Below are positions 5,571 to 10,334 of a stretch of 64,000 bases of DNA, piece after piece. The DNA is from Octopus sinensis (taxonomy: Eukaryota). A model generated the notes under the pieces. It did not search any database. It had not been told where the DNA came from and was given only the letters and a program-made list of their open reading frames with translations. The stretch lies in contig NC_043000.1 of NCBI RefSeq assembly GCF_006345805.1, positions 744,001 through 808,000 of the forward strand, in the 5' to 3' direction. The position numbers and the translations under genes are program-made. Each line of letters opens with the position of its first letter. Position 1 is the first letter of the stretch.

Positions 5571-6145
5571 GGCGGCGAGCTGGCAGAAACGTTAGCACGC
5601 CGGGCGAAATGCTTAGCGGTATTTCGTCTGCCGCTACGTTCTGAGTTTAAATTCCGCCGAGGTCCACTTTGCCTTTCATCCTTTCGGGGTCGATTAAATA
5701 AGTACCAGTTACACACTGGGGTCGATGTAATCGACTTAATCCGTTTGTCTTTTCTTGTTTGTCCTCTCTGTGTTTAGCCCTTTGTGGATAGTAAAGAAAT
5801 AGGTATTTCGTCTGCCGCTACGTTCTGAGTTCAAATTCCGCCGAAGTCGCCTTTGCCTTTCATCCTTTCGGGATCGATAAATTAAGTACCAGTTATGCAC
5901 TGGGGTCGATGTAATCGACTTAATCCGTTTGTCTCTCCTTGTTTGTCCTCTCTGTGTTTAGCCCCTCGTGGATAGTAAAGAAATAGGTATTTCGTCTGCC
6001 GCTACGTTCTGAGTTCAAATTCCGCCGAAGTCGCCTCTGCCTTTCATCCTTTCGGAGTCAATAAATTAAATACGAATTGTGTACTGGGGTCGATCTAATC
6101 GACTGGCCCTTTCCCCCAAAATTTCGGGCCTTGTGCCTAGAGGAC
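5571..6145 (+). mobile_element. tRNA-derived SINE family A, three tandem units
   Basis: ggcggcgagctggcagaaacgttagc head, B-box-like gagttcaaattcc, and the conserved gcctttcatcctttcggggtcgataaattaagtaccag domain repeated three times at ~185-bp spacing. Confidence 0.88.
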
Positions 6146-9749: not shown

Positions 9750-10334
9750 TAAAAACTACATTTCAATTTCTCTGACTTTTGGTGTGTCGGTGCCGATGGT
9801 ACTGATTCGCTGTTTTTTGCGTTGTCCGCCATACTTTGAGGATTATGAGGAGGAGGAGGAAAAAGACTGTTATAACTGAAGTTTGTGGTCTGAAGATTGA
9901 ATCGAATCCAAGAGCGTGTTTAGCGTATATAGCTCCTGCTGATAAGATTCCGAGCGGGCCTTGTTTCGAAGCGTCACGAATGAATTGTTGATCTGCTTCC
10001 CAATTTTCTTTATAAGGATCGGTGTAGTGTAAGTCGTAGACATAGGCAATGAGATCAAGTTCGTTAATTGGTTCTTCTTGTAGTTTGCTGAATATGTGTG
10101 TTCCCGGTCCGAGAAATTTATATCCTGGTGGATGTAACTTCGACGCAGCTGTCTTCGAAATTTTTTTTTTTTGTTTGAAAAAGTCAGAATGACGCTGTCG
10201 CTGGTACCACCCAAATATATATACTAGGCACCGCTTACTACCAGAACCAGGGCTTTTTCCAAGGTTTGTTATCAGACTTATCATACTCCCTCCAGAGGAA
10301 TTCAATTTTGAGGATTATGAGGAGGAGGAAAAAG
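9750..10334 (-). pseudogene. Endogenous densovirus/parvovirus-like element: VP1-unique phospholipase A2 (Parvo_coat_N-type) fragment
   Basis: The minus-strand translation LHPPGYKFLGPGT...PINELDLIAYVYDLHY...EADQQF...GILSAGAIYAKHALG matches the parvoviral PLA2 pattern: PGYxxLGPG Ca-binding loop, P-x-N-x-x-D, HDxxY and AD-x-x-F. The catalytic HD appears as YD. Confidence 0.8.

Follow-up and report, generated by a model that had tools for sequence, protein, structure and literature searches.

Endogenous parvoviral elements (EPVs) are well documented (bioRxiv 10.1101/2021.10.25.465781). The Densovirinae, in turn, already include mollusc viruses, and the phospholipase A2 (PLA2) domain is limited to the Parvovirinae, the Densovirinae and transfers from them, as set out in the accessible part of PMC13426907. 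For cephalopods, the supplement to Francois et al. 2016 (PMC5013282) lists NS sequences from O. bimaculoides (one of them genomic), Sepia officinalis and Euprymna scolopes, together with a VP transcript fragment from O. vulgaris, JR446908. Beyond that paper, no report on cephalopod endogenous parvoviruses was found in a literature coverage that mostly leaves out subscription journals; the accessible text of PMC11357303 does not mention octopus. No classified cephalopod parvovirus turned up in the searches made.

The locus described here lies in the window, that is, the whole 64 kb stretch of octopus DNA that was analysed. In the terms of the accessible EPV text, it resembles known elements in being a short, broken germline fragment present at one locus in related hosts, and VP-only inserts are known among EPVs. 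It differs from them in being cephalopod, young, joined to a LINE, provided with a duplicated linker and not assignable to a genus. The feature is both real and endogenous, and its membership in the Parvoviridae is likely, as judged from the sequence. Probably, it is a single-copy, broken fragment of what is likely a parvovirus capsid gene, joined to a truncated LINE; it is likely a non-functional fossil, and its source would be an unclassified lineage.

The cephalopod sequences in the Francois et al. supplement come from the same host class as the window locus but, unlike it, have their best matches in Iteradensovirus, Aveparvovirus or AAV. Neither the window locus nor the capsid family of about 610 aa discussed below is among the rows of that supplement examined. 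The sequence-only reading had proposed that the viral lineage may be undescribed. This holds only in part, as cephalopod parvovirus-like sequences were already in print in 2016.

The PLA2 domain and the viral piece around it

A stop-free minus-strand frame, 10314–9763, contains the peptide on which the sequence-only reading was based. That reading had recognized a PLA2 of the type unique to VP1 (VP1u) and had named a Pfam profile search as a check. Its identification holds: the peptide is present letter for letter and matches PF08398 (Phospholip_A2_4) at 31.9 bits against a cutoff of 23.9 (E 1.7e-7), with no match to a cellular PLA2 family in Pfam at E ≤ 1. A phmmer search of 1.84 billion representatives returned 67 matches, the best at E 4.5e-21, and PF08398 is present in 65 of them. 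By the PF08398 match and the homolog alignment, the domain occupies 9889–10155 (minus strand), with the Ca-loop motif PPGYKFLGPG at 10131–10102 (minus strand). Like the VP1u PLA2 of the Parvovirinae and Densovirinae, it has the Ca-loop, the dyad Asp, AD..F and a downstream helix, and it lies N-terminal to an internal Met. Unlike these, the window copy has Tyr in place of His, no start codon and an out-of-frame linker.

The His-Asp mechanism of these PLA2 enzymes is well established. Codon 10038–10036 specifies Tyr at the catalytic His position, where 67 of the 71 aligned relatives have His; the reported change of this codon is thus borne out. Since Tyr replaces the His of the mechanism, the PLA2 domain of the window copy is likely inactive. 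Two of the relatives, the Logan protein P0010 and P0003, likewise have another residue (Tyr and Leu, respectively) at the position of the catalytic His, which suggests further decayed copies.

Other searches with the peptide and its relatives gave little. The window peptide had no sequence match in the PDB below E 0.11, and a word-indexed search that used an 88-aa piece to look for longer homologous proteins produced 32 candidates, none of which scored. In IMG/VR, the window peptide, P0012, A3 and P0003 yielded nothing but one 20-residue match; it falls in a phage gene, in a frame of the opposite strand, and was judged to be chance. A3 and P0002 had no match in the metagenome scans.

The viral piece, about 550 bases, is larger than the PLA2 domain alone. 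Read along the minus strand, it runs from a repeat copy (10334–10307) through the tail of a reading frame (to 10241), a TATA box, an initiator, a T12 tract, the PLA2 domain and a linker to a VP2-like start, MADN. It likely spans the region from the VP promoter to the first 14 or so codons of VP2. The linker between PLA2 and the VP2-like start is at 9833–9888 (minus strand), and the reading frame is broken inside it. In the closest relatives, the linker is in frame and 17–22 codons long, after which a Met opens the capsid sequence. The VP2-like start, at 9790–9832 (minus strand), breaks off about 14 codons in, and the viral piece has an approximate left end; the ATG at 9832 opens MADN in a frame other than that of PLA2. 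MADN also follows PLA2 in P0002 and P0003, and MAE or MAD does so in P0001, P0088 and P0089. Across the six frames of the window, MADN occurs once. Over its wider extent, the short stretch shows weak similarity, with shuffle tests giving p values of 0.009–0.76. To summarize, the two parvoviral VP traits are recognizable: a VP1u PLA2 motif N-terminal on a capsid protein, broken in the window copy, and an internal VP2 start after PLA2, whose continuation into capsid is seen only in relatives. No further VP fragment was found in the window by tblastn or with the profile of the capsid family.

Upstream of PLA2, the T12 tract sits at the expected VP1 start (10161–10172), and no in-frame ATG exists between the initiator and the Ca-loop motif. 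The tract varies between sequencing runs, with 1 additional base in X5 and 2 in X8. Because of these differences, the long frame of 183 aa is not a maintained open reading frame, which corrects the sequence-only reading. The viral piece is thus broken in three places: at its start, in the active site and within the linker. The TATA box (from 10223) and an initiator-like TCATTC (10192) lie in 10187–10223 (minus strand). Consensus motifs for both elements are well known. The pair is unique in the window outside TA microsatellites and arose in 1 of 5000 shuffles, although the pattern was chosen after it had been seen; it is likely the viral VP promoter, as far as sequence can tell. The segment 10241–10306 (minus strand) is the tail of a reading frame that lies upstream and closes with two stops; its depth is single-copy. 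It has no Pfam match, and the stretch 10173–10306 is without a homolog; we infer a viral origin, and the segment is possibly the end of a non-structural gene.

A direct repeat marks the joint. Copy 1, of 31 nt (9835–9865), forms the linker end, 2 nt before the VP2-like ATG; copy 2, of 28 nt and one GAG shorter, is at the 5′ joint of a LINE (10307–10334). Two matches were found in the window against none expected. The LINE, a 5′-truncated, decayed non-LTR retrotransposon retaining part of its reverse transcriptase (RT), extends over 10331–11750 (plus strand), with its start placed from the RVT_1 match (E 8.1e-9) and its right end approximate. The last 4 nt of copy 2 double as the first codons of the RT-like stretch. 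The virus piece and the LINE are arranged head-to-head, and 28 nt of the linker are duplicated where they join. The 28-nt repeat was not accepted as a host target-site duplication flanking the viral insert, since it leaves the VP2-like start outside. A candidate target-site duplication of the LINE, a lone 11-nt word, lies inside the 3′ part of the LINE and was rejected as well. Of the 114 frames of at least 45 aa in the 5.9–16 kb segment, only the PLA2 and RT frames pass the Pfam cutoff, and an Rfam scan of 5–16 kb found no match. The sequence-only reading was incomplete: it had not noted the LINE, the TATA/initiator pair, the repeat at 9835–9865 and 10307–10334 or the VP2-like start at 9832.

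The surroundings hold several other features. Inverted arms of 36 nt, 94% complementary and 60 nt apart, form 12048–12179, which looks like a small non-autonomous DNA transposon. Two short minus-strand frames, 14606–14893 and 15254–15544, have no Pfam match and resemble the C-terminal nuclease end of non-LTR retrotransposons. A host LRR membrane-protein ORF at 15727–21768 (plus strand) is a single stop-free frame of 2013 codons; its product has a long stalk of low complexity and, late in the sequence, a hydrophobic segment. This product is identical to an O. vulgaris protein at 1121 of 1137 aligned residues (98.6%), the annotation there covering just 1172 aa of the frame. The identity places the host in the O. 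vulgaris group, as O. vulgaris itself or a species very near to it. Tandem copies of a repeat of 168–184 nt, which resembles an octopus SINE, are found at 5618–6104 and 51603–51913. An assembly gap of 100 N (38062–38161) is far from the viral piece.

Endogenous state and age of the locus

The stretch is present in 10 of the 24 listed runs, under four coded organism labels. These runs are all DNA or unlabelled; no RNA run is listed among them, which has no bearing on expression. With the possible source set aside, 8 runs from 5 studies remain, under three other organism labels. The species distinctness of the labels aside, the same locus is found in several closely related octopuses.

Contigs from 4 of the 10 runs with the stretch were aligned to the window, and copy number rests on contig depth. 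The X8 contig (9852–10678, depth 5.95) has 2 other letters, carries the same Tyr codon and bridges the LINE joint. The X4 contig (10174–10793) also bridges it, at a depth of 59.9 compared with 49.9 for the locus-specific LINE contig in that run. The X5 contig (9835–10345, depth 4.65) is not counted as bridging because its reach past the joint is too short. The germline status put forward earlier is therefore upheld at the LINE joint, where a junction with host DNA is seen at single-copy depth in independent samples, X4 and X8. The summed contig depth of the LINE itself is far above single-copy in all 4 runs. Depth is also high in 3 of the 4 runs in bin 9807–9877, perhaps owing to simple-repeat contigs. 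The left joint (9790) is bridged by no listed contig, and X2 coverage is patchy.

Differences between runs amount to 0.2–0.6%, and the indels in the viral piece differ from run to run. This divergence fits the O. vulgaris group, whose age is given as about 2.5 My in the accessible parts of PMC10700109 and bioRxiv 573493. The LINE shows other letters at 55–64 places over about 1.4 kb. At a rate from the literature, this would correspond very roughly to an order of 10 My, a figure that dates the virus only if the two arrived together.

Two explanations bear on the locus as such. An assembly chimera with a contaminating virus might be suspected, as no listed contig bridges the left joint; we give it next to no weight, since independent studies, under different organism labels, show this same broken piece and its LINE joint at the single-copy depth of the host. 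The fragment might instead have been kept for a host role, as a source of antiviral piRNA or as an exapted promoter near the LRR gene. Its sharing among organism labels at so small a difference, with the TATA/initiator pair intact, would fit such a role. Yet a group of the age cited above, about 2.5 My, should show divergence this low, the coding frame is broken in three places, and the indels vary between runs, so that retention for function is quite improbable. The locus is read as a germline fossil, likely without a present function.

Relatives, the capsid family and the source virus

The two best phmmer matches are Logan proteins. The third is O. vulgaris CAI9735766.1, 52% identical, and the top matches also include O. 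bimaculoides A0A0L8FWZ4; P0011 is from O. bimaculoides. CAI9735766.1 is on an 84-Mb contig, whereas the O. vulgaris ortholog of the neighbouring LRR gene is on a 177-Mb contig. Because the contigs differ, CAI9735766.1 represents a separate insertion. Its VP2 part is 43–51% identical to a Logan capsid family (E 1e-35 to 1e-49) that consists of full-length members of 606–621 aa and several partial ones, on contigs of 2–4.5 kb. A Sepia pharaonis protein joins this family at E 1.4e-20.

The PLA2 trees have 89 columns only and no named references. In the first, the window groups with P0001, P0002, P0003 and P0011 at 92/76; in the second, from which P0036 (not a PLA2) was dropped, the same four are still nearest, and no starred clade holds the window. 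One exclusive clade of the window and the full-length family was rejected at p 0.029, for a group chosen after the tree had been seen. Given so weak a PLA2 tree, it is the VP2 similarity of the relatives that connects the window piece with the full-length family. On this basis, the source virus likely came from an unclassified lineage with a VP1 of about 610 aa, of which other fragments are in O. vulgaris, O. bimaculoides and cuttlefish. The lineage has likely infected cephalopods more than once.

Other proteins touch on this group. A sea spider protein, P0007 (Nymphon striatum, KAG1679876.1), combines PLA2 with an AdSDV_VP1 match, adjoins the octopus group in the first tree and is probably another endogenous element. 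The P0004, P0005 and P0016 clusters make up another Logan family, whose members carry additional N-terminal sequence ahead of PLA2; its VP2 similarity to the octopus-linked proteins is weak (P0016, E 4e-9).

Which viruses the piece came from is argued from VP, as no terminal hairpin is linked to the element and no NS1 was found among the frames of the 5.9–16 kb segment. The sequence-only reading had spoken of a densovirus. A germline, broken, parvovirus-type VP1u PLA2 in an octopus stands, but "densovirus" is not assignable because there is no linked NS1, and the relatives' capsid part, unlike the VP1u PLA2 proteins of the Parvovirinae and Densovirinae, matches no Pfam capsid model. That orphan capsid, the alignment of its profile with Denso_VP4- and AdSDV_VP1-bearing proteins over PLA2 only, and a weak Gemini_coat match on one PLA2 match could point to another ssDNA virus group, bidnavirus-like or CRESS-like, with a PLA2-bearing single jelly-roll capsid; the status as a fossil would be the same. 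ESM features of the capsid part place Denso_VP4/VP1_2 parvovirus clusters in the top two positions (0.94 and 0.93), with smacovirus capsid clusters at 0.93 and anellovirus at 0.90, and the rows listed are mostly Cossaviricota. All PDB matches of the family profile are annotated capsid or VP1 chains, aligned at PLA2 only. An N-terminal PLA2, a short linker, an internal Met, a protein of about 610 aa and contigs of 2–4.5 kb fit parvoviruses as the accessible part of PMC13426907 describes them, and we regard a different ssDNA group as improbable.

The main alternative named at the outset was a Polinton or adintovirus origin, from a PLA2X gene. PF08398 is not specific to parvoviruses: PLA2-like genes occur in adintoviruses (PMC8502044), PLA2X belongs to the same Pfam family, and many of the 67 matches are short proteins without a capsid part. 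But PLA2X, in the accessible text of that paper, ends in a pX-like domain, whereas the closest relatives of the window peptide run on into capsid sequence. The window copy is present at single-copy depth, and the arrangement expected of PLA2X, in which the PLA2 stands alone, has a pX-like tail and neighbours PolB, integrase and capsid genes, was not found: PolB, integrase and ATPase matched none of the 114 frames. This origin is therefore disfavoured and very improbable, and a parvovirus capsid gene is the preferred source.

A proposed origin of the joint and its meaning

We propose that the germline took up a piece of viral DNA through joining guided by microhomology at the 5′ end of the LINE. 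In one route, the LINE reverse transcriptase would have jumped onto viral single-stranded DNA, first to the linker and then to the upstream region, giving the observed order. In another, the LINE would have landed in an existing viral insert and deleted its upstream part, with repair copying 28 nt as filler. The two routes appear about equally probable, and either would explain the copy of the linker at the joint. Because any VP mRNA would start downstream of the TATA box, a longer transcript or viral DNA itself likely served as the template, and not VP mRNA. Since LINE cDNA has the same polarity as the coding strand of the virus, its continuation onto the virus would need a negative-sense strand as template. 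Many parvoviruses package the negative-sense strand. We put forward, as a tentative suggestion that is less likely than not to hold, a still-circulating, unclassified cephalopod parvovirus lineage of genus or subfamily level, with a PLA2 capsid protein of about 610 aa unlike any Pfam capsid family and repeated entry into octopus and cuttlefish germlines, one copy of which was captured when a LINE RT switched onto viral negative-sense ssDNA.

Germline fossils are direct evidence of host range, and an orphan capsid family known from public sequencing runs is here tied to cephalopods through the window locus and the fragments in O. vulgaris, O. bimaculoides and Sepia. The joint offers a small test case for the entry of an ssDNA virus into the germline through LINE machinery. 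In octopus culture, the locus could yield false positives in PCR. The capsid lineage is what matters for parvovirus taxonomy, the window locus being mainly a host tag. Some of its members are full-length and look intact, so that the genome, taxonomy and hosts of the family are workable from existing data.
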